IMG/VR virus record: IMGVR_UViG_3300003316_000080
Span: 1 to 64,000 of that record
Strand: one strand, 5' to 3'
Length of the DNA stretch: 64,000 bases
Source of the DNA: a virus
Shown here: positions 128-28,228 of the stretch, piece after piece
Layout of the letters: every line of letters begins with the position of its first letter
Position numbering within the stretch: the first letter of the stretch is position 1
Program-made: the position numbers and the translations under genes
Notes under the pieces: model-generated
What the model was told of the DNA's origin: nothing
The model's input: the letters and a program-made list of their open reading frames with translations, nothing else
The model's database searches: none

Positions 128-413
128 CGATTTGCTCCTTCACGCCTTCGGCGGTCGGGATCAGCTCGCAGACGCCGGTCAAGTACAGCTCAGGATTCAT
201 GACATCGACCTTGCTGGCCTTGGCGTTGATGCCGTGCTGTGCCAGGCCAGACAGCGCGACACCATCCGCAGCGCGCCACGACCACAGACGGCGCGAGTTC
301 TTCAGTACGACGTTTTCGCCGTCGACAGCGACCACCTCGCCGGCGTGGACGCCTGCGGAGTAGCAACGCGCGATGACATAGCGGCCGATGAGAGATTGGG
401 CAATTTGGCTCAT
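114..413 (-). CDS. hypothetical protein (99 aa)
   Basis: ORF track 114..461; internal ATG at 411-413 with AAAGGA SD; protein-like sequence MSQIAQSLIGRYVIARCYSAG... Confidence 0.5.
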   Translation of the reverse strand: MSQIAQSLIGRYVIARCYSAGVHAGEVVAVDGENVVLKNSRRLWSWRAADGVALSGLAQHGINAKASKVDVMNPELYLTGVCELIPTAEGVKEQIDACK

Positions 414-484
414 GTTTTCCTTTCGTTGCGTGTCGTCGTTTGACTCCACTCGCAAGCCCACGAGGGTGGGCTTAGCGGCTGGGG

Positions 485-880
485 TCAGGCGGCCCGCGCT
501 GCCTTGAACTCAGCCCACTGGCGCGCCCCCAAGAGGCGCGCAAACTGGGCTTCCGGGATTTGCGTCGCCTTGGCCATGGCGCGCTGCGCCATCGCGACGA
601 CGGCCATGGTGGATGCCTCTTCCTTGCCGAAGCGCTCCTGGTAGTCGCCGACGATCTCCTGAAGAGCAAACAGCAGGTTCGGGGCGGCGGACATGGCGAG
701 GCCGATGGCCACGTTGTCGTGATCGGGGCCGCAGAAAGGGAGGGATGCGATGCAGCCAATGCCGTCCTCGACAATGACGGAGGGAAGCATGTGGACGAGG
801 CCGGTTGCCTCGTCACGGTGTTCCATGGCCGGCACGAAAGACCATTCGCGGCGCTCGCGGATTGGGGTGAAGCTGCTCAT
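485..880 (-). CDS. hypothetical protein (131 aa)
   Basis: ORF track 485..1120; ATG at 878-880 (MSSFTPIRE...) with GGAG upstream; lies just downstream of leftward promoter. Confidence 0.5.
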   Translation of the reverse strand: MSSFTPIRERREWSFVPAMEHRDEATGLVHMLPSVIVEDGIGCIASLPFCGPDHDNVAIGLAMSAAPNLLFALQEIVGDYQERFGKEEASTMAVVAMAQRAMAKATQIPEAQFARLLGARQWAEFKAARAA

Positions 881-905
881 GTCGTCTGCTCCGTCTGAAG
901 TTGAT

Positions 906-941
906 GGAGAGATTGTATATAAACTTCTTACTGGTCCGCAA
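906..941 (-). promoter_or_regulatory. sigma70-like leftward promoter (TTGCGG-N18-TACAAT) with embedded CCAGTAAGAAGTTT motif
   Basis: -10 TACAAT = revcomp of 912-917, -35 = revcomp of 936-941; same TATATACAATCTC element recurs at 28783 and 62654. Confidence 0.35.
921..934. repeat. CAGTAAA-palindrome motif copy (CCAGTAAGAAGTTT, minus orientation)
   Basis: inside leftward promoter spacer. Confidence 0.5.
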
Positions 942-1132
942 GCACTTTTCGCGGTGTCTTCAGCACGTGGCGCGGTGTGTTGCGTAGCTGATGGCGGGGA
1001 CGCGTCTGTGCGCCACCGAACACAAGAGGCTCTGTACCCGTCTTGCTGGGTGTGTTCACAGCCAGCCCCTTCCCAGGAACCACGCTGTACTTGAACGGCC
1101 ACGGTGTGGCACGTAGCCACACGCCGTTCTTC

Positions 1133-1840
1133 TTAGCCACGACGCCCGCCCAGTTGACGCGCCACCATGACAGCAAGGCCAGAGCGCAGATAGCCGGGGA
1201 ATGCAGCATCGAACAGTGATGCCACATTAGCCTGACACGTCGACAACAGCTTTGCTCCCAGTGGCACTTCCATGCGACGGCTGATGCGCCGCGCATGTGC
1301 AACCACCAGTTCAGCCAACAGGTGATATACGGACACTCGTGTTGTGACTGGTTGCTCCAGCAACTTGCTTTGCTTCATGAAGTCGAGCACTGGAGTGAAG
1401 ACCGCACCAGAGGCCGCAGTACGCTTCATCGTGTGCACCGAGCCACCCGCCCCCACCGAGCCTCCGAGAGTGTCGTGTAGGGCCTTGTGTAGCGCCACAG
1501 CCCACATGTCCGAATCACGAGCCGGTGCAGCTTCGTTGACTTCGAGACTTAGCTGAGCAAGCAGCTGCTTTTTCTGGTCGAGGCTCAGACGATTTATGTT
1601 GGTCGAGTCTTCATCATCTTCAACAACCAAAACATGTCGAGCAGTTTTGTGTTGTGTTGATTTATGTAGACCCTGTCCGGGGTAATCACCACACCCACCC
1701 CCCTCCCCTAAAGGGAGGGGTGGGGTGGTGTGTGTTGTTCCCTGGCGCTTTTTTTGAGAAGTGCCAGACGACACTGAAGCACTCGCCACTGGTGGATAGT
1801 GGCGAACTGGCCTTGTCAGAGAAACCTTGCTACGCGCCAT
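1133..1840 (-). CDS. hypothetical protein; start uncertain
   Basis: ORF track; ATG at 1838-1840 with GAGG upstream, but ORF contains GC-rich palindrome 1687-1734; C-terminal two thirds protein-like. Confidence 0.35.
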   Translation of the reverse strand: MARSKVSLTRPVRHYPPVASASVSSGTSQKKRQGTTHTTPPLPLGEGGGCGDYPGQGLHKSTQHKTARHVLVVEDDEDSTNINRLSLDQKKQLLAQLSLEVNEAAPARDSDMWAVALHKALHDTLGGSVGAGGSVHTMKRTAASGAVFTPVLDFMKQSKLLEQPVTTRVSVYHLLAELVVAHARRISRRMEVPLGAKLLSTCQANVASLFDAAFPGYLRSGLAVMVARQLGGRRG

Positions 1841-1867
1841 AAGTGCCTCAGTATCGATTTGTGGGCG

Positions 1868-2371
1868 TCAGGTGGCCCGGGAGTGCACCTTGCCTTGTTT
1901 CGCGGGCTTGTGCGGCTTCTGTGCGGTTTTGCTCTTGCTGGCGGCAGAGACAGCCTTGCCGCGCGCAGCTTTCGCGTACAGACCTTCTTGCTTGTCTTGC
2001 TGCGGCGCAGACTGTTCACGCTTGGTCGGCGTCTTGATGGGCGGCTTGGGGTCACTGGACTCGCTGCCGTCGTCAGTTGCGCGCACAGCGCCCTTCTTGT
2101 TCTTCACCGGCTTCGTCTTCGCGACGGGCCCGGGTTGCTTGTTGGGCTCAGACGCGGCGGGCGGATTGAACTTCACGCCGTGATCCTTGGCCCACTTGGC
2201 AACTTCGCTCAGCTGGTACACCAGCTTGCCGTCGTCGCCGGTCGTGTAGGGCAGCGGCGCCTTGGTCGGCGTCCCGTTGCGCCAGTTATAGACGGTCATG
2301 TTTGCGACGCCGAACGCCTTCAGGATGTCCTTGTGCGTCAGCGTCTTCACGCCGTTCTTTTGCTTTGCCAT
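1868..2371 (-). CDS. HTH DNA-binding protein with Lys/Pro-rich basic tail
   Basis: ATG at 2369-2371 with AAGGAG 8 nt upstream; N-terminus MAKQKNGVKTLTHKDILKAFGVANMTVYNWRNG looks like a helix-turn-helix; tail KPVKNKKG...KPHKPAKQGK. Confidence 0.55.
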   Translation of the reverse strand: MAKQKNGVKTLTHKDILKAFGVANMTVYNWRNGTPTKAPLPYTTGDDGKLVYQLSEVAKWAKDHGVKFNPPAASEPNKQPGPVAKTKPVKNKKGAVRATDDGSESSDPKPPIKTPTKREQSAPQQDKQEGLYAKAARGKAVSAASKSKTAQKPHKPAKQGKVHSRAT

Positions 2372-2481
2372 GGGGTGCTCCTTCTTCATAGATGAAATGG
2401 CACGAGGATTATATATGAACTCGTTTGCGCTCTGTATATAGGCGCACGGCTACACTGCCGCCTTCCCACAGGAGAACTCAC
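2372..2481. promoter_or_regulatory. divergent intergenic region with AT-rich boxes (ATTATATATGAA, TGTATATAGG)
   Basis: 110-bp gap between leftward gene ending 2371 and rightward gene starting 2482; TATAAT readable on minus strand. Confidence 0.3.
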
Positions 2482-3132
2482 ATGAAGAACGCCAGATACG
2501 AGTTGGCCGGCCTGACGCTGCCTGTTCTGGGCATCGGCCGAGGCCAAGTGCTGCACGTAGGACCCAATGCCGGGTTCATGTGCATCAACCTTTTACTGGG
2601 ATCCTTGCCGAAAGCAGACGGGACCTTGAAGGAGATCACGACGGAAGCAGACCAGGTGTTGCACGAACTGATCGCCGCCTTCAACAAGTACCAGCACATC
2701 AACATCCTGCGTGTCCACTCGTCCGGCGATGCGATCGATCCGCTGCAGTGTGGCACCTTGTACGACCTGCATAAAGCGCTGCTCGCGTGGAGCCGTGAGC
2801 AGGGGCGTTCCTTCCAGATGCAGATCGAGACGAATGGGAAGCACGAGCACCCGAAGTTCCACGGCGCTGTGTCGATGATCCACGCACGGGCTGAGTCCCT
2901 GCTGTTCCTTGTCTTCGTGCACGGAAAGCCAGTGACTCAGATGCAGAACCTGTGCAAGCACTGGGTCTACACGTGTCAGGAACTGCTGGGCGAGCACTGG
3001 TCACATCTGTCACTGCCCTGGAAGACTTCGGCCTATGTCACGTACACACTCGATGACATCGTGTCGGACAAGGCCGCTCTCTTCACTGCCGCGAACAGGG
3101 AGGGCGTTCGTCTCCAGAAGGTGGTGGGCTGA
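2482..3132 (+). CDS. hypothetical protein
   Basis: ATG 2482 with AGGAG upstream; ORF track frame. Confidence 0.5.
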   Translation: MKNARYELAGLTLPVLGIGRGQVLHVGPNAGFMCINLLLGSLPKADGTLKEITTEADQVLHELIAAFNKYQHINILRVHSSGDAIDPLQCGTLYDLHKALLAWSREQGRSFQMQIETNGKHEHPKFHGAVSMIHARAESLLFLVFVHGKPVTQMQNLCKHWVYTCQELLGEHWSHLSLPWKTSAYVTYTLDDIVSDKAALFTAANREGVRLQKVVG

Positions 3133-3134
3133 TC

Positions 3135-3419
3135 ATGACGCTTTCGCTAACAGCAATGTCAGGGTGTGTGCCGCCTTGGGACATCTCCATCGTGGCGGCA
3201 CACCAGATCAGTGTGATTCGCGGCATGACCAAGCCCGGCGTGTGGACTGGTGCACAAATCATCCGTCCCCACCTGTACAGACAGGTGGACACGTGGTTTT
3301 GCCAGGACGGCGTACAACTGGGCATCGGGCGCTCACCACAAGAAGCGTGGGAGGACCTGGATTACCACCGGTTGTTTTCTGGTCGCGATTCTCTCCACCT
3401 TTACTTCTATCAACGCTGA
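3135..3419 (+). CDS. hypothetical protein (94 aa)
   Basis: ORF track; start and stop overlap neighbours (translational coupling). Confidence 0.4.
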   Translation: MTLSLTAMSGCVPPWDISIVAAHQISVIRGMTKPGVWTGAQIIRPHLYRQVDTWFCQDGVQLGIGRSPQEAWEDLDYHRLFSGRDSLHLYFYQR

Positions 3420-4276
3420 TGCAAGGCACTATTCACCTTCCCCGCCCGCGCGTCCTGCTGCTCGCGGACATGAGCTATGCCCTGCACCGCGCTGCAGCAA
3501 TCCACAAAGACCTTCAGTACGAGGGCACGTACACAGGTGGCCTGTTCGGACTCATGGGCACACTCGCTAAGCAGATACGCGAGATCAACGCGACGCACGT
3601 GGTCATGTGCACGGATCAGCCGCCGTATGAGCGCTCGCGCGAGTACCCGCAGTACAAGATGGTTCGCAAGAAGGCGGCCGATCCTGAACTGAAGGAACGC
3701 GTGAGGCTGTCTAAGCCATTGGCTGAGGAGTTCTGCCGGACGGTGGGGATTCCCATCGTGGGTGTGCAGGGCTTTGAAGCTGACGACTGCTCGGGGATGA
3801 TCGTCAAGATGCACCGGGCCCGCTTCGACGAAATTTACCTGGGTGCCAAGGACTCTGATCTGTACCAACTGCTTGTGCACTCGAATGTTCGAGTGATGAA
3901 GGGTTCTGAGCGTGAAGACATCGTCACGCGTGAAAGCCTCGCTGTGGGCAAGTTGGGCATGACGCCTGATGAATACGTGTTGTCGCAATGCCTTCAGGGC
4001 ACGCACAACGACGTGGAAGGCATTGATGGTGTTGGACCGGTGTCGGCCTACAAGGCTGTGAAACAGCCGGGCTACATGGCAGCACTACGCGCCAAGCATG
4101 CTGACCTGATCGACAGGAACTTGGCTCTGTCAAAGCTGCCACACACCAAGATGCCGTATCTGCCACTCCCTGAGCGCGGCCACTTCGATGCACGGGCTCT
4201 GTATAGATTCGCGGGAGCGCTGGGCATCGAGGTCACGATCTCCGTGCTGGACGCGCTCAAGCAGATCTCGAAATAA
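3419..4276 (+). CDS. 5'-3' exonuclease / flap endonuclease (FEN, PIN-like + H3TH)
   Basis: ATG 3419 overlapping upstream stop; motifs GFEADD, IDGVGPVSAYKAV typical of T5/T4 RNase H-type 5' nucleases. Confidence 0.8.
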   Translation: MQGTIHLPRPRVLLLADMSYALHRAAAIHKDLQYEGTYTGGLFGLMGTLAKQIREINATHVVMCTDQPPYERSREYPQYKMVRKKAADPELKERVRLSKPLAEEFCRTVGIPIVGVQGFEADDCSGMIVKMHRARFDEIYLGAKDSDLYQLLVHSNVRVMKGSEREDIVTRESLAVGKLGMTPDEYVLSQCLQGTHNDVEGIDGVGPVSAYKAVKQPGYMAALRAKHADLIDRNLALSKLPHTKMPYLPLPERGHFDARALYRFAGALGIEVTISVLDALKQISK

Positions 4277-4285
4277 GGACACGTT

Positions 4286-5737
4286 GTGGAGATTCAAACC
4301 ACGCTAGACGCAAGTCTGGCTGAGAACCTGTTGACGCTTCTGTGCTTTGACGACGAGCACTGCAAGCTGATCCGGTATGGGCTGACGCCGCAGATGTTTG
4401 AATCGGCGGTGCTCAAGCAGATTGCCGGCGTCGCAATCGACTTCATCGATCAGTTTGGTGTCGCGGTCAAGGAGCACTTGCCCGACCACCTAGAAGACAT
4501 CCTGAACGGTGAAGACCAGCGCAAGGCGAAGTCGTATCGGATGGTGCTGGAAAAGCTGTATGACTCGAAGGACGCGGTGAATGCCGAGTTCGTCATGTCG
4601 CAGTTGCATGCATTCGTTCGCGCAGCCACGCTGAAGAGCGGACTGATGGACGCCGTTGCTCACATGGAGTCGGGCCGGATCGCGGAGTGCGAAACAGCCA
4701 TGACGACAGCCTTGAGCCGTCAGGTGATTTCGTTCGAAGTGGGCACGCGACTGGACAATGCAGACAGCTTGTCGGAAGCGCTGACCAATCTGGAAGAACC
4801 GGGCTTCAACCTCGACATTGACGCTTTCGATCGCGTTGGTGCGATTCCACGCCGCAAGCAGCTGTCTGTGTTCTTGGCAGCACGTGGCCGTGGTAAGTCA
4901 TGGTGGTCGATCTACATGGGCAAGCAGGCGCTGCTGCAGCGCTGGTCCGTGCTGATTGTCACGTTGGAGTTGTCTGAGGCGTACTACACGAAGCGCTTTC
5001 TGCAGTCGTTCTTCTCAATCTCGGACCGACAAGCCAAGGTGCTGGTGTCGGAGTTCAAGCGCGGACGTGATGGCTCGATCGTGGACGTCGTTCAGTCGGA
5101 ACTGCACCGACGCACACTGCGTGACGATGACTCCTTGGAGTACATCGCAGCGCGAGCACGGCGCGAGTTCAAGCAACGCCCCCCGCTGATCATCAAGAAC
5201 TTTCCTACAGCGACACTGACAGCTGAGACGCTGGAAGCGTATCTGGACGGTCTGCAGCGCCATCAGAACTTCACACCGGACCTGATCCTTGTCGACTATC
5301 CAGGCTTGATGAAGCTCGATCCCAAGAACAAGCGCATTGAGCTGGGATCGGCGGTGGAGCGTCTACGCGGCATTGCCGTAGCCCGCAACGCCCACATGGG
5401 GATCATGGCTCAGGGCAATCGTGAGTCGGAGACGGCACACACGGTCACGGCGGACATGACCGCCGAGGACATCTCGCTGTTGGCTACGGCTGACTTGTTC
5501 TTCACCTACAGCCAGACCAAGCTGGAGGAAAAGCTTAACCTCGCCCGCATCTTGTGTGAGAAGAACCGTAATGGTGTGGACGGCTTCGGGGCTCTGATCA
5601 CACAAAGCTATGAGATCGGCCAGTTCTGCCTGGACTCCAGTCCGCTAGAAACTTCTTACTGGGAACTGGACGTGCACGAGCAGGAAGACGAGGACCGGCC
5701 GCGCCGCAAGAAGCGTCGCAACGAGGACGAAGAATGA
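4286..5737 (+). CDS. dnaB: DnaB-like replicative DNA helicase
   Basis: GTG start; Walker A AARGRGKSW, Walker B LILVDYPG, C-terminal EKNRNG as in DnaB family. Confidence 0.75.
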   Translation: MEIQTTLDASLAENLLTLLCFDDEHCKLIRYGLTPQMFESAVLKQIAGVAIDFIDQFGVAVKEHLPDHLEDILNGEDQRKAKSYRMVLEKLYDSKDAVNAEFVMSQLHAFVRAATLKSGLMDAVAHMESGRIAECETAMTTALSRQVISFEVGTRLDNADSLSEALTNLEEPGFNLDIDAFDRVGAIPRRKQLSVFLAARGRGKSWWSIYMGKQALLQRWSVLIVTLELSEAYYTKRFLQSFFSISDRQAKVLVSEFKRGRDGSIVDVVQSELHRRTLRDDDSLEYIAARARREFKQRPPLIIKNFPTATLTAETLEAYLDGLQRHQNFTPDLILVDYPGLMKLDPKNKRIELGSAVERLRGIAVARNAHMGIMAQGNRESETAHTVTADMTAEDISLLATADLFFTYSQTKLEEKLNLARILCEKNRNGVDGFGALITQSYEIGQFCLDSSPLETSYWELDVHEQEDEDRPRRKKRRNEDEE

Positions 5738-22829: not shown

Positions 22830-23179
22830 AGCCGCTGCCGGAGGGGATGTCAGACTGGTTCCCCTTCCCTCCTACGCTGCCCGGTTGGTACGAGGTGCTG
22901 CCACTCTTGTCTGTGGGATGGACGCCGGCACACGGCGCTCGCTGGAAGAAGCTCTACGGCTACACGCCAAGGCTGCAGACGATCGCACAGCGCCACTGGG
23001 ATGGGTCAAGCTGGTCAGACCCTGTCGAGCCTGATGCAACGCACCAGCAGCGCGTCCAGGCGTGCCAGCGTCGACGTCTGCCAAGACAACTGAACACCAG
23101 CACGCTATGGCGCGGTCGGTTGCAAGATGGCTGGCCTCCGCGTCCCCTGATCATTAGGGAGGTTCTACGCGATGCGTAG
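22826..23179 (+). CDS. hypothetical protein (GWYEV motif paralog)
   Basis: ATGA overlap; TLPGWYEVLPL. Confidence 0.4.
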   Translation: MKPLPEGMSDWFPFPPTLPGWYEVLPLLSVGWTPAHGARWKKLYGYTPRLQTIAQRHWDGSSWSDPVEPDATHQQRVQACQRRRLPRQLNTSTLWRGRLQDGWPPRPLIIREVLRDA

Positions 23180-23191
23180 ACAATCCACGTC

Positions 23192-24133
23192 ATGACTGTC
23201 TATTACAACGAGTTCAATCTGCACGCAGCCAAGTGGATTAGCAATCTGATCAAGGCAGGTTTGATAGCACCCGGGATTGTCGACACAAGGAGCATTGAGG
23301 ATGTCAGACCGCGAGACTTGCGAGGGTTCAAGCAGTGTCATTTCTTCGCCGGAGTGGGCGTGTGGAGCTATGCACTCCGACAAGCGGGATGGGCAGATGA
23401 CAGAGAGGTCTGGACAGGTAGTTGCCCCTGCCAACCTTTCAGCTCGGCAGGCGCAAAAGCTGGGTTTGATGACGAGCGGCACTTGTGGCCCCACTTCCAC
23501 TGGCTCATCGGCGAGTGCCGACCTACAGTCATTTATGGAGAGCAGGTTGCAAGCAAGAACGCGGACCCTTGGATCGACCTTGTATGTTCTGACCTGGAAG
23601 CCTTGGGTTACGCCTTCGGGGCGGTCCCGTTTGCGTCAGCGGGCGTCGGCGCCCCGCACGCGCGAGAGCGTACGTACTGGATGGCCCACACCAACAACAA
23701 GGGACTGGAAGGACGGCAAGGGTTGCGACAACGTACCGGCGAACGCGCTGCTGGGGCGTGTGGTGTGGCTGGCCGGTTGGGCAACGCCGACTACGTTGCA
23801 CAACAAGCGGACGGAGGCTTTCGCGGCGGGCCGCACTCCGACGCCTTCGGAAGTGCTGCCGACCTGCCAGCCGGCCCGACTAACGGCTACTGGAAAACTG
23901 CTGACTGGCTCTTCTGCCGGGATGAGCAGTGGAGGCCCGTTGAACCCGGCACATTCCCGTTGGCTGATGGCGCTGTTGCCAGAATGGGACGCGTGCGCGC
24001 CTATGGAAACGCTATCAATGCTGAGCAAGCCCGAATCTTTATTGAAGTGGGCATGGAAGCCTTGCACGCCCAGACACAAGCTGAGAACACCTCGGCATCA
24101 ACTGCGCGGAAGCAACTGAGAGGCCCTACGTGA
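23192..24133 (+). CDS. DNA (cytosine-5) methyltransferase
   Basis: motif I FFAGVGVWS, motif IV GSCPCQPFSSAG, motif X AYGNAINAEQARI. Confidence 0.7.
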   Translation: MTVYYNEFNLHAAKWISNLIKAGLIAPGIVDTRSIEDVRPRDLRGFKQCHFFAGVGVWSYALRQAGWADDREVWTGSCPCQPFSSAGAKAGFDDERHLWPHFHWLIGECRPTVIYGEQVASKNADPWIDLVCSDLEALGYAFGAVPFASAGVGAPHARERTYWMAHTNNKGLEGRQGLRQRTGERAAGACGVAGRLGNADYVAQQADGGFRGGPHSDAFGSAADLPAGPTNGYWKTADWLFCRDEQWRPVEPGTFPLADGAVARMGRVRAYGNAINAEQARIFIEVGMEALHAQTQAENTSASTARKQLRGPT

Positions 24134-24363
24134 AGATCACTGACGTGTCCAACAAGAAGACAGTGGTGTGTGGCTTCACATGCTGGCATTGCCGCCGCGT
24201 GGTGTTATCTGGTGGCGCCGCTGAAGTCGTCGAGATCTCGATCAAGTTGCGGCCGGGCGCTGACAGACGTGAGCGTGCAAACCGCCTGAGAATGGCCCGT
24301 GCTGAACTGCGCCATGCCCTTGCTATATTCCGCGCCAACAAAGAACTTGAGGACCTCGCATGA
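24130..24363 (+). CDS. hypothetical small Cys-containing protein
   Basis: GTG start overlapping upstream stop; VVCGFTCWHC. Confidence 0.35.
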   Translation: MKITDVSNKKTVVCGFTCWHCRRVVLSGGAAEVVEISIKLRPGADRRERANRLRMARAELRHALAIFRANKELEDLA

Positions 24364-26852
24364 GTGTGCGTTGTGTTGACTGCCTTGTGGGCCTGCGCCA
24401 GCTTCCAGATGCATCCGTTGATGCCATCGTCACGGATCCGCCCTACGGCCTGAGCGAGCAGAAGCCAGCGGAACTCGCTGCTTGCATCGCTGCATGGCTG
24501 GCCGGCGAGGTCTACCAGCCGAAGGGCAAGGGCTTCATGGGCAAGTCCTGGGACGCCTGGGTGCCTGGGCCCGAAGTCTGGCGCGAGTGCTTCCGCGTTC
24601 TCAAGCCGGGCGGACACATCCTGGCCTTCGCCGGCACGCGCACGCAGCACTTGATGGCGCTGTCGATGGCCCTGGCTGGATTCGAAATCAGGGACATGAT
24701 CGCCTGGGTGTATGGCTCCGGGTTTCCGAAGTCGCTGGACGTGTCGAAGGCGGTCGACAAGGCAGGCGGAGCCTCGCCCGTCGAGCAGGCTGAACTGCTG
24801 CGCCGCAAGCGCGTGGCGGCCGGCCTGACGCGAGAGCAGGTCGCGGAACACTGCGGGTGCACTCCATCGAGCGTTCGAGACTGGGAAGAAGGCCGAGCGC
24901 GCGCCGTCGGTGCCGCCGTTGAGTTCATCGTCCCGAGCGACGAGTACCGCACCAAGCTGGCCGACTTGCTCGGTTACAGCGTGGACGAGCGCAAGCTGAT
25001 TGGAACCTCGGCTGACCGGCGCGGCGATGGCACCGTCTACGGGGTGGGCCACAGCGGAGAGTTGCGCGCTGGCGGCAACACCGACGCTGCCCGCCAGTGG
25101 GAAGGCTGGGGCACCGCCCTGAAGCCGGCCCTTGAAACGGTTACTTTCGCTTCAAAGCCGTATACCGAAGAGCAGGAACGGAGTATAATTCAATCGAACC
25201 TAATTCGATTGGAGGCCCGTTTATGGTTGCTGTCGTCTGCGAGTGCTGCGGAAAAGAGTTCAACGTCAAGCCAAAGCGAGTACGGCGCGGCGTGCGCTAT
25301 TGCTCAATGGAGTGCCGACGAAATCACCAGTACACGGGCCGCTTTGTGCGGTCAGATGGATACGTCGCTGTTCGAGTGGGCAGCGACTACCAGCTTGAGC
25401 ATCGTGTCGTCATGGAGGCGCACATTGGTCGAAAGCTGGAGCGATGGGAGCACGTCCACCACCGAAACGAAGTCAAACACGACAACCGACTCGAGAACCT
25501 TGAAATTCTCACTGTCGCAGATCACGCCGAGCACCATCATCAAGGCCTGCAGCCTTCCCGGTGGGTTCAATGCGAATGCCTCCACTGCGGAAAGCCACTT
25601 CAACGCCTCGCTGTTGTTGTTGCAAAGCATCCGCACACTTTCTGCGACCGAGCCTGCTATATCGCAGGCGCAGCACGAACACCTGGGCGCGGGCGTAAAG
25701 CCGAACCTTGATCCATGCATCATGGCGCGCAAGCCGCTGGTCGGAACGGTCGCGGCCAACGTTCTGGAGCACGGGACGGGGGCGCTGAATATCGACGGGT
25801 GCCGCGTGGGCGATGAGGAGCGGGTGAACGGCGCCGGATCTGTGACCTCGCTTCAGCGTCAATCACGGGTCGCGGCGGGATACCGCGATGATGCTGGCGT
25901 TGGCCCAGGCTCTGACGCGAAGACCGTTGTTGGCCGTTGGCCCGCCAACCTGATCCACGACGGCAGCGACGAGGTGCTGGCGGCGTTCCCGAACGCGCCT
26001 GGTCAACTCGCGACGGCGAGCACCAGCGACACGCAGCGCTCCGGACAGAACACCTACGGTGCGATGACCCGTGGCAGCACGGGACAAGAACCGCGCGACG
26101 AGCTCGACAAGAGCGCCGCCCGATTTTTCAAGGAGTGTGCATGGGACGAACCTCGATCTGTTGCGAGCACTGCCGCGCAGCCTTTGTGCCTGCAAAACCA
26201 AGTCGCCGATTCTGTTCAGAGCGCTGCAGCAACTTGGGCCAGCCTCGCGGGAATACTCTCAAACGATTCGAAGGAACGTTCTATGAACGTAACTCCGATC
26301 GAGTCAAGAGCGATCGCAGAAACCGTTATCACTGCGACGACGAGTATCGCAAGCGGGTTCTCGCTCGAGTCGCAGCACGAAAGGCTCACCCCGTGCCGCA
26401 GCCTTGTGAAGACTGTGGTGCGCCGAACGCCGATCGGCATCACGACGATTACGACAAGCCTCTCTCGATCCGATGGAAGTGCCGGAGCTGCCACGTTCAC
26501 CATCACGCCGACGAGCTTGGATCGTGGGGATCTGGGCTCGCGGTTTGAGTACTGCGCCAAGGCTAGCAAGAAGGATCGCGGCGAGGGTAACAACCACCCT
26601 ACTGTCAAGCCGACCGCGCTGATGCGGTATCTCGTCCGCCTTGTTACCCCTCCGGGTGGCACTGTACTTGATCCTTACACGGGCTCTGGTTCAACAGGAG
26701 TGGCCGCGCAAGCGGAAGGCTTCAAGTTCATCGGATTTGAGAATGACCCTGCTTCTTGTGCGATTGCAAACAGGCGAATGGGACTCACGGGCCTGCTTGC
26801 TGTGAACAAAGAGCGCCGCCAGCTGCGTCTTCGCAAGCAGTTGATTGAGTGA
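24360..26852 (+). CDS. N6-adenine/N4-cytosine DNA methyltransferase (DPPY...FxGxG order), interrupted by two HNH cassettes; 830-aa open frame
   Basis: N-terminal AIVTDPPYG, VLKPGG; C-terminal HPTVKPTALMRYLVRLVTPPGGTVLDPYTGSGSTG; intervening frame is S/T-rich. Confidence 0.65.
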   Translation: MSVRCVDCLVGLRQLPDASVDAIVTDPPYGLSEQKPAELAACIAAWLAGEVYQPKGKGFMGKSWDAWVPGPEVWRECFRVLKPGGHILAFAGTRTQHLMALSMALAGFEIRDMIAWVYGSGFPKSLDVSKAVDKAGGASPVEQAELLRRKRVAAGLTREQVAEHCGCTPSSVRDWEEGRARAVGAAVEFIVPSDEYRTKLADLLGYSVDERKLIGTSADRRGDGTVYGVGHSGELRAGGNTDAARQWEGWGTALKPALETVTFASKPYTEEQERSIIQSNLIRLEARLWLLSSASAAEKSSTSSQSEYGAACAIAQWSADEITSTRAALCGQMDTSLFEWAATTSLSIVSSWRRTLVESWSDGSTSTTETKSNTTTDSRTLKFSLSQITPSTIIKACSLPGGFNANASTAESHFNASLLLLQSIRTLSATEPAISQAQHEHLGAGVKPNLDPCIMARKPLVGTVAANVLEHGTGALNIDGCRVGDEERVNGAGSVTSLQRQSRVAAGYRDDAGVGPGSDAKTVVGRWPANLIHDGSDEVLAAFPNAPGQLATASTSDTQRSGQNTYGAMTRGSTGQEPRDELDKSAARFFKECAWDEPRSVASTAAQPLCLQNQVADSVQSAAATWASLAGILSNDSKERSMNVTPIESRAIAETVITATTSIASGFSLESQHERLTPCRSLVKTVVRRTPIGITTITTSLSRSDGSAGAATFTITPTSLDRGDLGSRFEYCAKASKKDRGEGNNHPTVKPTALMRYLVRLVTPPGGTVLDPYTGSGSTGVAAQAEGFKFIGFENDPASCAIANRRMGLTGLLAVNKERRQLRLRKQLIE
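25137..25712 (+). mobile_element. 576-bp HNH endonuclease cassette inserted in MTase, flanked by ~42-bp imperfect direct repeats
   Basis: flanks 25119-25160 and 25695-25736 (AAGCCGGCCCTTGAA vs AAGCCGAACCTTGAT); AT-rich leader with TATAAT 25184-25189 and hairpin 25191-25211. Confidence 0.6.
25223..25711 (+). CDS. HNH homing endonuclease (HNH_3-like)
   Basis: ATG 25223 with GGAGG SD; DGYVAVRVG...YQLEHRVVMEAH...HHRNEVKHDNRLENLEILT; different frame from MTase. Confidence 0.8.
   Translation: MVAVVCECCGKEFNVKPKRVRRGVRYCSMECRRNHQYTGRFVRSDGYVAVRVGSDYQLEHRVVMEAHIGRKLERWEHVHHRNEVKHDNRLENLEILTVADHAEHHHQGLQPSRWVQCECLHCGKPLQRLAVVVAKHPHTFCDRACYIAGAARTPGRGRKAEP
26130..26548 (+). mobile_element. second HNH endonuclease cassette inserted in MTase
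   Basis: flanked by degenerate copies of MTase RFF(Y)CAKAS segment (SAARFFKECAW upstream, GSRFEYCAKAS downstream). Confidence 0.5.
26141..26548 (+). CDS. HNH endonuclease (small, zinc-ribbon N-terminus)
   Basis: ATG 26141 with AAGGAG 5 nt upstream; CEDCGAPNADRHHDDYDKPLSIRWKCRSCHVHHH. Confidence 0.7.
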   Translation: MGRTSICCEHCRAAFVPAKPSRRFCSERCSNLGQPRGNTLKRFEGTFYERNSDRVKSDRRNRYHCDDEYRKRVLARVAARKAHPVPQPCEDCGAPNADRHHDDYDKPLSIRWKCRSCHVHHHADELGSWGSGLAV

Positions 26853-26964
26853 CACAATGAACACTCTTTCGTGACCTCTCGATGGAACAGATCAACCGAC
26901 CGGAAAGGATGGGTAGGCGCATGCGTTGAAGCGAACAGGACACGCCCACGTGGGCATTTAGGCA

Positions 26965-26995
26965 AAAGGCCCCTGACTCAACATCAGGGGCCTTT
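26965..26995. terminator. bidirectional rho-independent terminator between convergent genes
   Basis: 12-bp stem AAAGGCCCCTGA / TCAGGGGCCTTT, 7-nt loop, A-run before and T-run after. Confidence 0.6.
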
Positions 26996-27020
26996 ATGCT
27001 TTCGAGCGGAGGGGAGGGTG

Positions 27021-27443
27021 TCAGAACGTGACACCCATGCGCTTCAATTTCACCTTGATCTCATCCACCGTGTGGATCACCTCGGGTCGAGAGAACAAAC
27101 CCCAGCGATCTTTGTGCACCATGCACGACACGTCGTCGACGATCAGTGACGCATTGGCAACGAGGGCAAACGGCAGGTCCATCACCTTGGTGTTGGTTGC
27201 GAAGGCTGCTGTCTGTCCGTTGAGGCAGAACAGCAACCGTGTGAGTTGTGGTTGCTCAGAGCGACGCTTGCGCTCGTCCACATCACGCTTGACCGCGCGC
27301 AGCAGATGGTGGACGACGGCCACAGCACGGCGCTGATCAGGTGTGCTCTGGCGAGCCACCATACAGTCAAGCTCATGCACCCACCACTGGCCCTCTTGGA
27401 AGTCCTCCAGTGGACTTGTCCCGTCACACTTGTCATTGCTCAT
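27021..27443 (-). CDS. hypothetical protein (140 aa)
   Basis: ATG 27441-27443 with AAGGAG upstream; ends at terminator. Confidence 0.5.
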   Translation of the reverse strand: MSNDKCDGTSPLEDFQEGQWWVHELDCMVARQSTPDQRRAVAVVHHLLRAVKRDVDERKRRSEQPQLTRLLFCLNGQTAAFATNTKVMDLPFALVANASLIVDDVSCMVHKDRWGLFSRPEVIHTVDEIKVKLKRMGVTF

Positions 27444-27633
27444 CGCTTTTCTCCTTTGATGCTGCGAAGCTCTTGGTGTCCGCAGGAATGTCGTCCATGA
27501 GTGGACCCAGACCGAATGCGTCTGCTATCACCCGAGTGAATGGCTGAACCGGGCAGTGCACGTACCAGTGACCGCGCTGGCCGCAAGTGACGCACTCGCG
27601 CTCCGGGTTGAGTTGTTGTGGATCAGCTGGCAT
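27433..27633 (-). CDS. small CCHC zinc-knuckle protein (66 aa)
   Basis: ATG 27631-27633 with GGAGG 6 nt upstream; CVTCGQRGHWYVHC = C-x2-C-x4-H-x4-C. Confidence 0.45.
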   Translation of the reverse strand: MPADPQQLNPERECVTCGQRGHWYVHCPVQPFTRVIADAFGLGPLMDDIPADTKSFAASKEKSDEQ

Positions 27634-27772
27634 TGGTGCCTCCGATGAAGTCCGCTGGATCAGGCCGGCGCTCGTCGAACTCACGGCCGTCGCGGGCGGC
27701 TGCGAACATGCGCGCGTACCATGACTCCAGCGCTGCTCGATAGCGCATCAGCGCGCGGAACTCGGCGCTCAC
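27623..27772 (-). CDS. small hypothetical protein (49 aa)
   Basis: GTG start with GGGAGG SD; overlaps both neighbours. Confidence 0.3.
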   Translation of the reverse strand: MSAEFRALMRYRAALESWYARMFAAARDGREFDERRPDPADFIGGTNAS

Positions 27773-27891
27773 GATCCGCCTCCCTGGGACAGCGCGGCAC
27801 TATCGGTTTCAGCCATGTAGCGATGCGCTGCGGATTGCGCTTTCAAGCGTTCGATCAGCGCTTCCAGCGCCTGGGTGCGTGAGGTGGTCAT
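27769..27891 (-). CDS. small hypothetical protein (40 aa)
   Basis: ATG 27889-27891 with AAGGA SD; overlaps downstream GTG. Confidence 0.3.
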   Translation of the reverse strand: MTTSRTQALEALIERLKAQSAAHRYMAETDSAALSQGGGS

Positions 27892-27940
27892 GGGTGTCCT
27901 TGGTGCGGGAATGTGGAATGTGGATAGGACTTAAGCCGTG

Positions 27941-28228
27941 TCAGGCGGGTCGAACAGCGTCAGGTGACACCGTGGCGAAGCGGCTCCGAGGGCTTTTGTA
28001 GTAGTCCATTTCAACGCGAAGTTGAATGCTGGCAGTCGTGCCGCTGCCAAAGTTCCAAGTGTGTACGGTGCAGCCCCAGATAGTGGCCGGTGACGGATTG
28101 ACTTGGCGGCTGCTGAGTAGCACCCCGACACGTGTTCCAACTGGATAGAGGTCTGCGGCCAGGGCGAGTGCGTCGTCATGGGCTTTACCAACGGCGCCCA
28201 GTAGTTGGTTCAGGGCCTTTTCGTTCAT
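27941..28228 (-). CDS. hypothetical protein (95 aa)
   Basis: ORF track; ATG 28226-28228 with AAGGAG SD. Confidence 0.5.
   Translation of the reverse strand: MNEKALNQLLGAVGKAHDDALALAADLYPVGTRVGVLLSSRQVNPSPATIWGCTVHTWNFGSGTTASIQLRVEMDYYKSPRSRFATVSPDAVRPA

Follow-up and report, generated by a model that had tools for sequence, protein, structure and literature searches.

How can a methyltransferase gene carry two endonuclease genes within its coding sequence and still remain open from end to end? The question is raised by a gene in a 64,000-nucleotide (nt) stretch of viral DNA (IMG/VR record IMGVR_UViG_3300003316_000080, positions 1–64,000; hereafter the window, whose positions are used for all coordinates). 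The window belongs to a tailed phage, encoding a DNA polymerase, a helicase, an SbcC-like nuclease, a large terminase, a portal, a tail sheath, and tail fibre proteins; its guanine-plus-cytosine (GC) content is ~59%, and long shadow open reading frames (ORFs) are numerous. On the plus strand, positions 24360..26852 hold one ORF of 830 codons for a β-class N6/N4 DNA methyltransferase (methylase), which would be ~498 codons long without its two inserts. The original prediction held that the DPPY and FxGxG motifs of this enzyme are unusually far apart, with two HNH endonuclease genes between them in another frame, and left three options: an in-frame tolerated insertion, a split or disrupted methylase, or an arrangement based on splicing or recombination. 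The motifs are indeed far apart. The catalytic DPPY motif occupies residues 26–29 (24435..24446, +) and is invariant in both of our homolog alignments, and the S-adenosylmethionine (AdoMet)-binding motif I, the FxGxG-type DPYTGSGSTG, occupies residues 771–780 (26670..26699, +) in the C-terminal host segment, or extein, where the block-mean predicted local distance difference test (pLDDT) score of an AlphaFold2 model is 89–95. The Pfam match to N6_N4_Mtase (PF01555, 3.5e-31) is divided between the two protein ends, the NCBIfam matches are of the adenine-methyltransferase/CcrM type, and a search with the 830-residue protein returns thousands of homologs of 460–1010 residues. All catalytic motifs are intact in insert-bearing alleles.

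We think it likely that this ORF is a methylase invaded at two conserved motifs by homing elements that are read through rather than spliced. Two independent selfish elements of the hidden-HNH (ShiLan-domain) kind would each consist of little beyond a nuclease gene with its own ribosome-binding site, placed at offset +2 from the host frame; having neither a ribozyme nor an intein, they would not be removed. Lengths divisible by three and a constrained choice of codons would keep the host frame free of stops, and the ribosome would read through to give a methylase with internal insertions of 192 and 140 residues. The ends of the elements would encode mimics of the displaced motif half, so that the motif is rebuilt at the junctions (LKPALE-TVTFASKP, VKPNLD-PCIMARKP, and xRFx-YCAKAS). 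The nuclease would be made separately, by internal initiation at its own Shine-Dalgarno sequence and ATG and, by analogy with other HNH homing enzymes, would cut insert-free methylase alleles in co-infecting phages, with repair copying the element in.

The boundaries of both inserts are fixed by homologs with empty sites and by DNA alignments with sharp edges of identity. Insert 1 (25137..25712, +) is 576 nt or 192 codons long (host residues 260–451) and lies between E259 and P452 in the motif LKPALE↓PxxxARKP, in which the arrow marks the insertion point; insert-free relatives read GWGTALKPALE↓PITVARKPL. Insert 2 (26130..26549, +) is 420 nt or 140 codons long (host residues 591–730) and lies between F590 and Y731 in SAARFF↓YCAKAS, the sequence that insert-free relatives have uninterrupted. 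At the DNA level the empty sites read ...AAGCCGGCCCTTGAA↓CCGATCACCGTGGCGCGCAAGCCG... and ...GCCCGATTTTTC↓TACTGCGCCAAGGC..., and host-frame translation of the inserts would yield peptides such as SSTSSQSEYGAACAIAQWSADEITSTR. Each insert is filled almost entirely by a nuclease gene in another frame, as had been proposed; the offset is +2 in both. The HNH homing-type endonuclease gene HNH1 (25223..25711, +; 162 residues; Pfam HNH_3 at 3.3e-9 and PHROG HNH families to 1e-17) has its stop codon inside the last 4 nt of insert 1 (TGAT), leaving 86 nt before and 1 nt after it, or 87 nt outside the ORF. HNH2 (26141..26548, +; 135 residues) likewise has its stop inside the last 4 nt of insert 2 (TGAG), with 11 nt before and 1 nt after, or 12 nt in all. 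Homologs with collinear segments at both positions, which the original prediction would have taken as evidence against insertion, do exist in number, but the segments are the same mobile element and not native sequence.

Insert 1 is of a published kind. In Mycobacterium phage ShiLan, a 202-residue insertion in the DNA methylase gp65 has a stop-free host frame, no intein or intron features, and a patchy, horizontally transferred distribution (PMC9957025, PMC11855218), and it contains a hidden HNH gene in another frame with its stop within the last four bases (PMC11855218). HNH1 is 47–50% identical over 97–98% of its length to the hidden HNH proteins of ShiLan, Starcevich, Mantra, Filuzino, and others (48.2% identity, E = 2e-35, for ShiLan); gp65 and the window methylase are of the same family (40% identity), and the gp65 site, ...KPSYE↓PVCVAVKPY...TAFE↓PIVVARKPL, is identical to that of insert 1, the shared form being GWGTALKPxxE↓PxxVARKP. 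Given this homology and the same site in the same methylase family, insert 1 is a ShiLan-domain ortholog in a non-actinobacterial phage lineage. The likeness extends to the stop-free host frame, the nuclease stop in the last 4 nt, a start that mimics downstream residues, a patchy distribution, an element far less diverged than its host gene, and the lack of an intron or intein signature. Insert 1 differs in having 192 rather than 202 codons and in being found in an environmental tailed phage (~59% GC) and not in an actinophage. Its nuclease gene has a GGAGG-N7-ATG start, whereas no ribosome-binding site and a leaderless GTG were given for ShiLan, and it duplicates both halves of the split motif, whereas only a 5′ repeat was noted there (PMC11855218). 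The arrangement is thus less novel than the original prediction assumed, its kind having been published in 2023 and 2025 (PMC9957025, PMC11855218).

Insert 2 at ARFF↓YCAKAS has the same architecture with an unrelated nuclease family and is absent from both papers (PMC9957025, PMC11855218). As its nuclease is not homologous to the ShiLan HNH, comparison of the sequences places insert 2 outside the ShiLan family proper, although it resembles elements of this kind. The HNH domains that had been proposed for both nested ORFs find support from profile searches for HNH1 and not for ORF 2, which matches PHROG_2340, "endonuclease," at 1e-10. The pattern of cysteine and histidine residues in HNH2 is invariant in 12 homologs, and its AlphaFold2 model (mean pLDDT 78) has a C-terminal ββα unit; HNH2 is probably a His-Me finger nuclease, that is, a ββα-Me (HNH-like) zinc-finger nuclease. 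Foldseek against the PDB gave only zinc-finger noise (E >0.4), and NCBIfam gave only a sub-threshold TnpB zinc-finger match. HNH2 is matched by only 11 database proteins, and a PacI-like match at 29% coverage is its sole counterpart in annotated phage genomes. A comparable case is Pacc40, a Mycobacterium phage with a hidden HNH/AP2-type insertion in the helicase-methylase gp60 (PMC11855218, section 3.6). Both systems have an alternative-frame nuclease ORF in an insertion in a phage methylase, an open host frame, and a nuclease whose assignment to HNH is less secure; they differ in host methylase family and in insertion site, and HNH2 has no similarity to the Pacc40-type hidden HNH (tblastn E >0.1).

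The DNA of insert 1 is 88–93% identical among 11 copies compared with 67–72% in the flanks, a homing signature, and HNH1 is 93% identical to the copy in the methylase of the cyanophage Cr-LKS3 of Cylindrospermopsis. Copies of HNH2 are ~57–70% identical at the protein level, with comparable host divergence, and the leader of insert 2 ranges from 11 to ~100 nt across the 12 diverged copies aligned. Both inserts are present in 3 of 101 aligned homologs (the window gene, P0002, and P0110), a set biased to insert 1 because the query contains it. Among 80 family members sampled via the insert-free N terminus, an HNH2-type gene was found in 2 and a close HNH1 copy in 0, indicating that both elements are sporadic; for this census only presence or absence of a nuclease match is reported, the initial completeness filter having been too strict. 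Several copies of element 1 show signs of decay. L007 has a host-frame TAG at ~2972–2974, in the leader and shortly before the HNH gene begins, and L008 (~3445–3447) and L010 (~656–658) have a premature TGA that shortens the HNH protein by 14 residues while the host frame stays open. The pattern in L008 and L010 fits decay of the nuclease after fixation.

Could the open host frame be a compositional accident of GC-rich DNA, brought to notice by ascertainment of long ORFs? The GC content and the many long shadow ORFs of the window speak for such an accident, as does permutation of each gene's own codons, which for the two window genes alone leaves the host frame open with probabilities of 0.17 and 0.56. 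We gathered loci by searching viral contigs with the nuclease proteins, thereby avoiding ascertainment through long ORFs. The host frame, shifted by +1, is open across the nuclease gene in 11 of 11 loci with HNH1 relatives (62–95% identity) and in 18 of 18 loci with HNH2 relatives (57–70% identity). In 10 of the 11 HNH1-type loci it runs for 554–1110 codons, the remaining locus being L007 with its TAG. Stops close the third frame in almost all copies, although in four HNH2-type loci it extends over ~125 codons, and in distant free-standing relatives the shifted frame fails to span the nuclease gene. Among 18 control genes of the window, the longest open run at offset +2 is 149 codons, with a stop density of 0.037 per codon, and synonymous resampling with genomic codon usage gives probabilities of an open frame of 0.005 for HNH1 and 0.054 for HNH2. 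An accident of composition is also at odds with the AT-rich copy L011 (37% GC), in which the host frame has 0 stops and the third frame 16. With loci ascertained by their nucleases open in essentially all copies, and free-standing relatives closed, we regard this explanation as effectively refuted.

Codon choice in the nuclease genes points to how the host frame is kept open. A valine, leucine, or isoleucine codon before a purine-initial codon is at risk, as a purine at its wobble position would make a host-frame stop. In these contexts the stop-making third base is used in 0 of 375 codons of embedded genes versus 93 of 266 in free-standing relatives, and embedded genes have A- or G-ending codons at 32–43% in safe contexts. 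Methionine followed by an A-initial codon likewise occurs 0 of 42 times in embedded genes versus 6 of 39 in free-standing ones. In L011 all 21 at-risk codons are safe, whereas A or G is the last base of 9 of 12 codons in safe contexts. The nuclease protein itself is conserved: variable sites in 11 close copies of element 1 are distributed 32:13:61 over HNH codon positions 1:2:3, making host-frame position 2 the most variable, and every pairwise comparison gives a higher amino acid identity for the HNH frame than for the host frame (61% against 34% with L011, 48% against 33% with ShiLan). By these comparisons HNH1 is under purifying selection at the protein level and the host-frame peptide of the insert is not. 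Sorted by host codon position, variable sites in the flanking exteins of alleles with inserts number 63:0:268 and 332:194:867, marking the methylase as a live gene in those alleles. Such quantitative evidence of selection on two frames is new relative to the ShiLan papers.

Each nuclease gene has the strong ribosome-binding site that had been noted at the outset. HNH1 is preceded by the Shine-Dalgarno sequence GGAGG (25211..25215, +), with a 7-nt spacer to the ATG; most close copies retain it, and the aligned sequence in ShiLan is GGAGGA. HNH2 is preceded by AAGGAG (26130..26135, +), with a 5-nt spacer, which forms the first bases of insert 2, and many other copies of element 2 have a longer leader with TATAAT and GGAGG or AAGGAG. 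Upstream of HNH1, a perfect TATAAT hexamer (25184..25189, +), a possible internal −10 box, is present in 11 of 11 close copies. An internal sigma-70 promoter for HNH1 found no support, as TATAAT has no acceptable −35 element and a promoter scan returned 0 sites. A hairpin at ~25189–25213 (z = −1.8) partly covers the HNH1 Shine-Dalgarno sequence, and an inverted repeat, TCAATCGAA...TTCGATTGGA, follows TATAAT and overlaps the same sequence (25184–25215). In six copies a double change from G:C to T:A keeps the pairing of this repeat, and in four there is a mismatch. The evidence for a function is weak, but the repeat might form a hairpin that controls translation or serve as an operator. For the hidden HNH of ShiLan, which was described as having no ribosome-binding site, a leaderless GTG start near the 5′ end of the insert was proposed, giving a 195-residue product (PMC11855218). 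In the ShiLan locus (L109; insert 2418–3023), the codon homologous to the HNH1 ATG is a GTG at 2501, 84 nt into the insert, with GGAGGA before it (CTGGAGGACGAGTG). The alignment suggests that the ShiLan HNH starts at this internal codon led by a Shine-Dalgarno sequence, with ~169 rather than 195 residues, and that the published start may be wrong.

The hairpin bears on another explanation, that the methylase is already non-functional or dispensable in insert-bearing alleles and that its open frame is maintained because it serves the element or genes nearby, by avoiding Rho-dependent polarity or mRNA decay or by letting coupled translation melt the hairpin at the Shine-Dalgarno sequence. The HNH1 Shine-Dalgarno sequence is partly sequestered, AlphaFold2 gives no confident fold for the middle of the protein, and L007 tolerates a host-frame stop, all as this explanation would have it, and the methylase is non-essential in mycobacteriophages (PMC11855218). 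For coupling, however, it would be enough that the frame is open as far as the HNH start; it would not have to continue across the whole nuclease gene and meet the C-terminal extein in phase. The exteins both upstream and downstream are under clear purifying selection in the host frame, the catalytic motifs are all retained, and the motif copies described next are selected at the peptide level, which is sensible only if the host protein matters. We consider a dispensable methylase unlikely. The option of a split or disrupted methylase fares no better, the frame being continuous and its flanks constrained. In this respect the locus differs from Aeromonas phage Aeh1, in which the free-standing nuclease gene mobE reportedly splits nrdA, as Friedrich et al. 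are said to have described in 2007. There, too, a homing nuclease gene that is neither in an intron nor in an intein sits in a conserved coding sequence, and host function is retained, but the host gene is made as two separately translated polypeptides, whereas here one continuous selected frame spans 830 codons.

The ends of both elements carry copies of the motif that the insertion splits. At the left end of insert 1, the element-borne TVTFASKPYT (25137..25166, +) copies the downstream half, mimicking the displaced PITVARKP, and rebuilds the motif with host LKPALE; at the right end, VKPNLD (25695..25712, +), which overlaps the HNH1 C terminus, copies the upstream half, mimicking LKPALE, and rebuilds the motif with host PCIMARKP. 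The ~42-bp imperfect repeat that had been seen to bracket the first cassette is real. Its two copies (25119–25160 and 25695–25736) share 24 of 42 nt and 6 of 14 residues, and their BLOSUM62 score of 29 is the best of all 14-mers in the protein (the next is 19) and was reached by 0 of 20,000 shuffles. Codons 2–10 of element 1 vary 1:1:6 by host codon position, compared with 7:7:7 in the rest of the leader, and the motif shape is retained in diverged lineages as IITVAQKP (L011) and PVCVAVKP (ShiLan). The repeat noted at the second cassette also holds: element-borne SRFE (26538..26549, +) copies host ARFF, so that xRFx↓YCAKAS is restored where insert 2 ends on the right, and xRFx↓Y(C/S/V/A)AKA occurs in 12 of 12 aligned copies of insert 2 despite ~60% nuclease identity. 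We infer that the terminal copies are an adaptation by which the effective point of insertion is shifted to a position outside the conserved motif. In the AlphaFold2 model the left rebuilt motif (residues 257–265) forms a β-strand and the right copy is unstructured, although no firm conclusion on which copy is used can be drawn from a model with low confidence at residues 402–644 and an alignment of mostly insert-bearing rows.

The same repeats could be read differently. The start of the ShiLan domain resembles 11 residues downstream of the site, a resemblance that was likened to pairing of an internal guide sequence and raised as a possible intron feature (PMC11855218). The inserts might be excised from the transcript as novel, very compact introns, through self-splicing or host assistance of a kind not yet recognised, with the open frame incidental or serving another purpose. 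The start of insert 1 resembles the downstream exon in the same way, and the leader of insert 1 forms a modest hairpin. Furthermore, group I introns within phage genes are the classical carriers of HNH homing genes, an example being I-HmuI in the DNA polymerase genes of Bacillus phages SPO1 and SP82. Such introns resemble the inserts in carrying an HNH homing nuclease whose ORF has separate signals for its translation and in targeting a conserved position of a phage gene. The inserts, however, have no ribozyme core and almost no sequence outside the ORF, which bears out the original view that too little is left for a group I intron. A scan of 23000–28000 with Rfam 15 at E ≤10 found no intron family; its three weak matches were a terminator-like downstream hairpin and noise. 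Group I and group II introns were rejected on this result, on the 12 non-ORF nt of insert 2 (the leader alone ranging from 11 to ~100 nt across copies), and on unremarkable folds of the leader and junctions. Introns need neither a length that is a multiple of three nor a stop-free exon frame, yet both are maintained in diverged copies; the terminal repeat is kept at the peptide level with synonymous changes and not at the RNA level (24 of 42 nt), and the exon bases before the inserts are A and C rather than the usual U. Removal as RNA is, in our view, very unlikely. If the inserts belong to the broader class suggested below, the terminal repeats described for ShiLan would be due to regeneration of the motif and not to guide pairing of the intron kind.

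The inserts might instead be removed as peptides, the methylase being translated through them and the peptides later lost by non-canonical protein splicing or by proteolytic cleavage into two or three pieces that together remain an active enzyme, with the motif halves as overlapping ends of the fragments. An open frame and lengths that are multiples of three are what an intein requires, the elements sit in conserved motifs as inteins do, an apparently genuine intein is found at another site of this methylase in P0008 and P0017, and motif copies flanking insert 1 would let each fragment keep a complete structural element. The parallel with inteins that contain homing-endonuclease domains goes further, to spread by homing and a sporadic distribution. 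Inteins differ, however, in features that the inserts lack, namely a Hint domain, C/S/T nucleophiles, and a terminal HN, and in having the nuclease in the same frame. The 830-residue protein has no Hint or intein match in Pfam at E ≤0.1, and the junction residues (T...LD↓P for insert 1 and K...FE↓Y for insert 2) are incompatible with known protein-splicing chemistry, which agrees with the original judgement that these are not inteins. A catalytic or specifically cleaved module is unlikely in a host-frame peptide that is without amino acid selection, with host codon position 2 the most variable, and that is low in complexity; this peptide is presumably not excised. Removal after translation appears to us extremely improbable. 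The splicing or recombination-based option falls with the absence of an Rfam intron, of non-ORF sequence in insert 2 beyond 12 nt, and of a Hint domain, and the locus is best described by the remaining option, in-frame tolerated insertion, for which empty-site homologs (ALKPALE↓PITVARKP and ARFF↓YCAKAS), a selected open frame, and constrained exteins all speak.

Several observations nevertheless weigh against a methylase that is read through and remains active. Neither frame is inviolable, given the host-frame TAG of L007 and the truncated HNH ORFs of L008 and L010. The pooled Fisher P of 4e-41 for stop avoidance overstates independence, since related sequences are pooled, although the direction of the effect is unambiguous in the sequences compared. 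Permutation of a gene's own codons is often non-significant on single genes (probability of an open frame 0.03–0.8); this test has low power because codon composition has already been shaped by the constraint, and the at-risk contexts were used in its place. The open frame could also be selected for reasons other than methylase function, such as avoidance of polarity or translational coupling. HNH2 is recognised by none of Pfam, NCBIfam, a PDB sequence search, and Foldseek. In the AlphaFold2 model, the core (residues 1–116 and 735–830) has block-mean pLDDT values mostly of 83–97, but values fall below 50 at residues 402–644, which include the conserved extein segment between the inserts, and the model cannot show that the double-insert protein folds. 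Nor are the host-frame peptides predicted to be simple disordered loops, the helices of insert 1 reaching pLDDT values up to ~87, possibly as an artefact of the many near-identical rows in the alignment. Finally, evidence on ShiLan-type elements is purely computational (Gosselin et al. 2023, PMC9957025; Arsenault, Gosselin & Gogarten 2025, PMC11855218).

Further hidden nucleases are found in relatives of the window gene. L121, on a contig shared with L029, has an HNH_3 ORF at offset +1 (4362–4880) within the variable part of its methylase, whose frame stays open, and also carries an HNH2-type element. A second HNH_3 ORF (8e-17) at offset +2 lies in an insert before NHPTVKP in L197 (P0049; 1743–2186), again with an open host frame. 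In L196 (P0003), an insert of ~280 codons after DPPYGL contains an antisense ORF of 271 residues (403–1215, minus strand), with sub-threshold matches of the PD-(D/E)XK type (Vsr, PvuRts1I-N, and REase), and the host frame is open here as well. Outside the methylase family, L012 encodes a 45% identical relative of HNH1 (2869–3420; Pfam HNH_3 at 3.6e-9) at offset +2 in a frame of 575 codons (1821–3545) that has no Pfam family match and is unrelated to the methylase; it may represent the same read-through design in a different host gene. P0008 and P0017 carry their intein-like insert at a third conserved methylase site, AWVYG↓CL...HRVIVERGG...VF(P/I)TGN↓SGFPKS (in short, AWVYG↓C...HN↓S), matching an intein reported for actinophage homologs; the site corresponds to the junction between G119 and S120 of the window gene (~24716/24717), where it is empty. 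In ShiLan (L109; 3575–3966, an interval that takes in the end of gp65, gp66, and gp67), gp65 ends soon after the ARFF/YEAKAP region and is without the C-terminal AdoMet motif, and a separate 84-residue ORF 3′ of it, gp67, is annotated "methyltransferase." The ShiLan methylase may be split or interrupted near the equivalent of the insert 2 site.

The methylase gene has other features of note. A helix-turn-helix (HTH) domain of the XRE type (Pfam HTH_31 at 1.1e-9, HTH_3 at 7e-7) is encoded in frame in the variable region (residues 144–211; 24789..24992, +). The homolog alignment shows it to be lineage specific, with P0003, P0005, P0076, P0116, and P0096 having it and others not; a chromosomal methylase copy of Kaistia sp. 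32K is also among the homologs that bear it. Block-mean pLDDT values are ~75–95 over most of the domain, falling to 49 around residues 181–190, and the domain could serve in autoregulation or additional DNA binding. Just 3′ of the methylase stop, a GC-rich hairpin, GGCCCCTGA...TCAGGGGCC, is followed by TTTAT (26948–27000). It is probably an intrinsic terminator, and it explains a weak, sub-threshold Rfam match to Thr_leader (25.5 bits).

Upstream of the N6/N4 methylase, a C5-cytosine methyltransferase gene (23192–24133, +) is overlapped by a second open frame on the same strand (23277–24119, +). The first frame, A (313 residues), matches phrog_363 over its full length (4e-84), and frame B (280 residues, shifted by +1 nt) matches phrog_1008 (6e-28) and phrog_31772 (9e-23). 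Frame B has >5,600 database relatives, and the 120 that were listed all lack a Pfam domain; it is open and conserved in phages of Burkholderia, Edwardsiella, Salmonella, and Klebsiella and in a Ralstonia prophage. Both frames are open and conserved in five distant phages or prophages (L191–L195), at 48–58% identity for A and 45–51% for B. Wobble positions of frame A are identical at 0.42–0.58 outside the overlap and 0.55–0.78 inside it, being as conserved as first positions exactly where frame B is conserved. The centre of frame A is barely conserved, and there frame B has repeated GWPTP modules; frame B ends in LNPxxSRWLMGLPxxWD, which resembles motif IX of C5-cytosine methyltransferases. A conserved ATG was not seen in frame B, and a literature search on a dual-coding C5-methylase found nothing. 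From this pattern of conservation the gene appears to be dual-coding for two conserved proteins, and frame B could be a true overlapping gene or could depend on frameshifting for its expression.

To our knowledge, homing endonucleases have been thought to persist in essential or conserved genes only by way of a self-splicing intron or an intein. ShiLan-type elements suggest a third route, in which nothing is spliced and the nuclease gene is overprinted on a stop-free host frame. The locus considered here extends this idea by placing the same element family outside actinophages, by adding a second, unrelated nuclease family of the same build in the same gene, and by giving quantitative evidence for selection that preserves the nuclease protein, keeps stops out of the host frame, and maintains the terminal motif copies. 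At least in the window lineage, ordinary Shine-Dalgarno sites would account for how a hidden HNH gene is translated, a question raised in the published work, and motif regeneration offers a testable mechanism of tolerance. We suggest, with slightly more doubt than belief, that these elements belong to a broad and largely unannotated class of read-through homing elements, defined by an overprinted, stop-free host frame and terminal peptide mimics and tolerated without splicing. If so, the methylase family alone hosts at least five element types at different sites, one of them at offset +1 and one antisense, and related elements sit in other host genes, as in L012. Gene callers annotate a single oversized methylase and miss the nested nuclease, so such elements are systematically under-counted, with HNH2 and its 11 database matches as a case in point.

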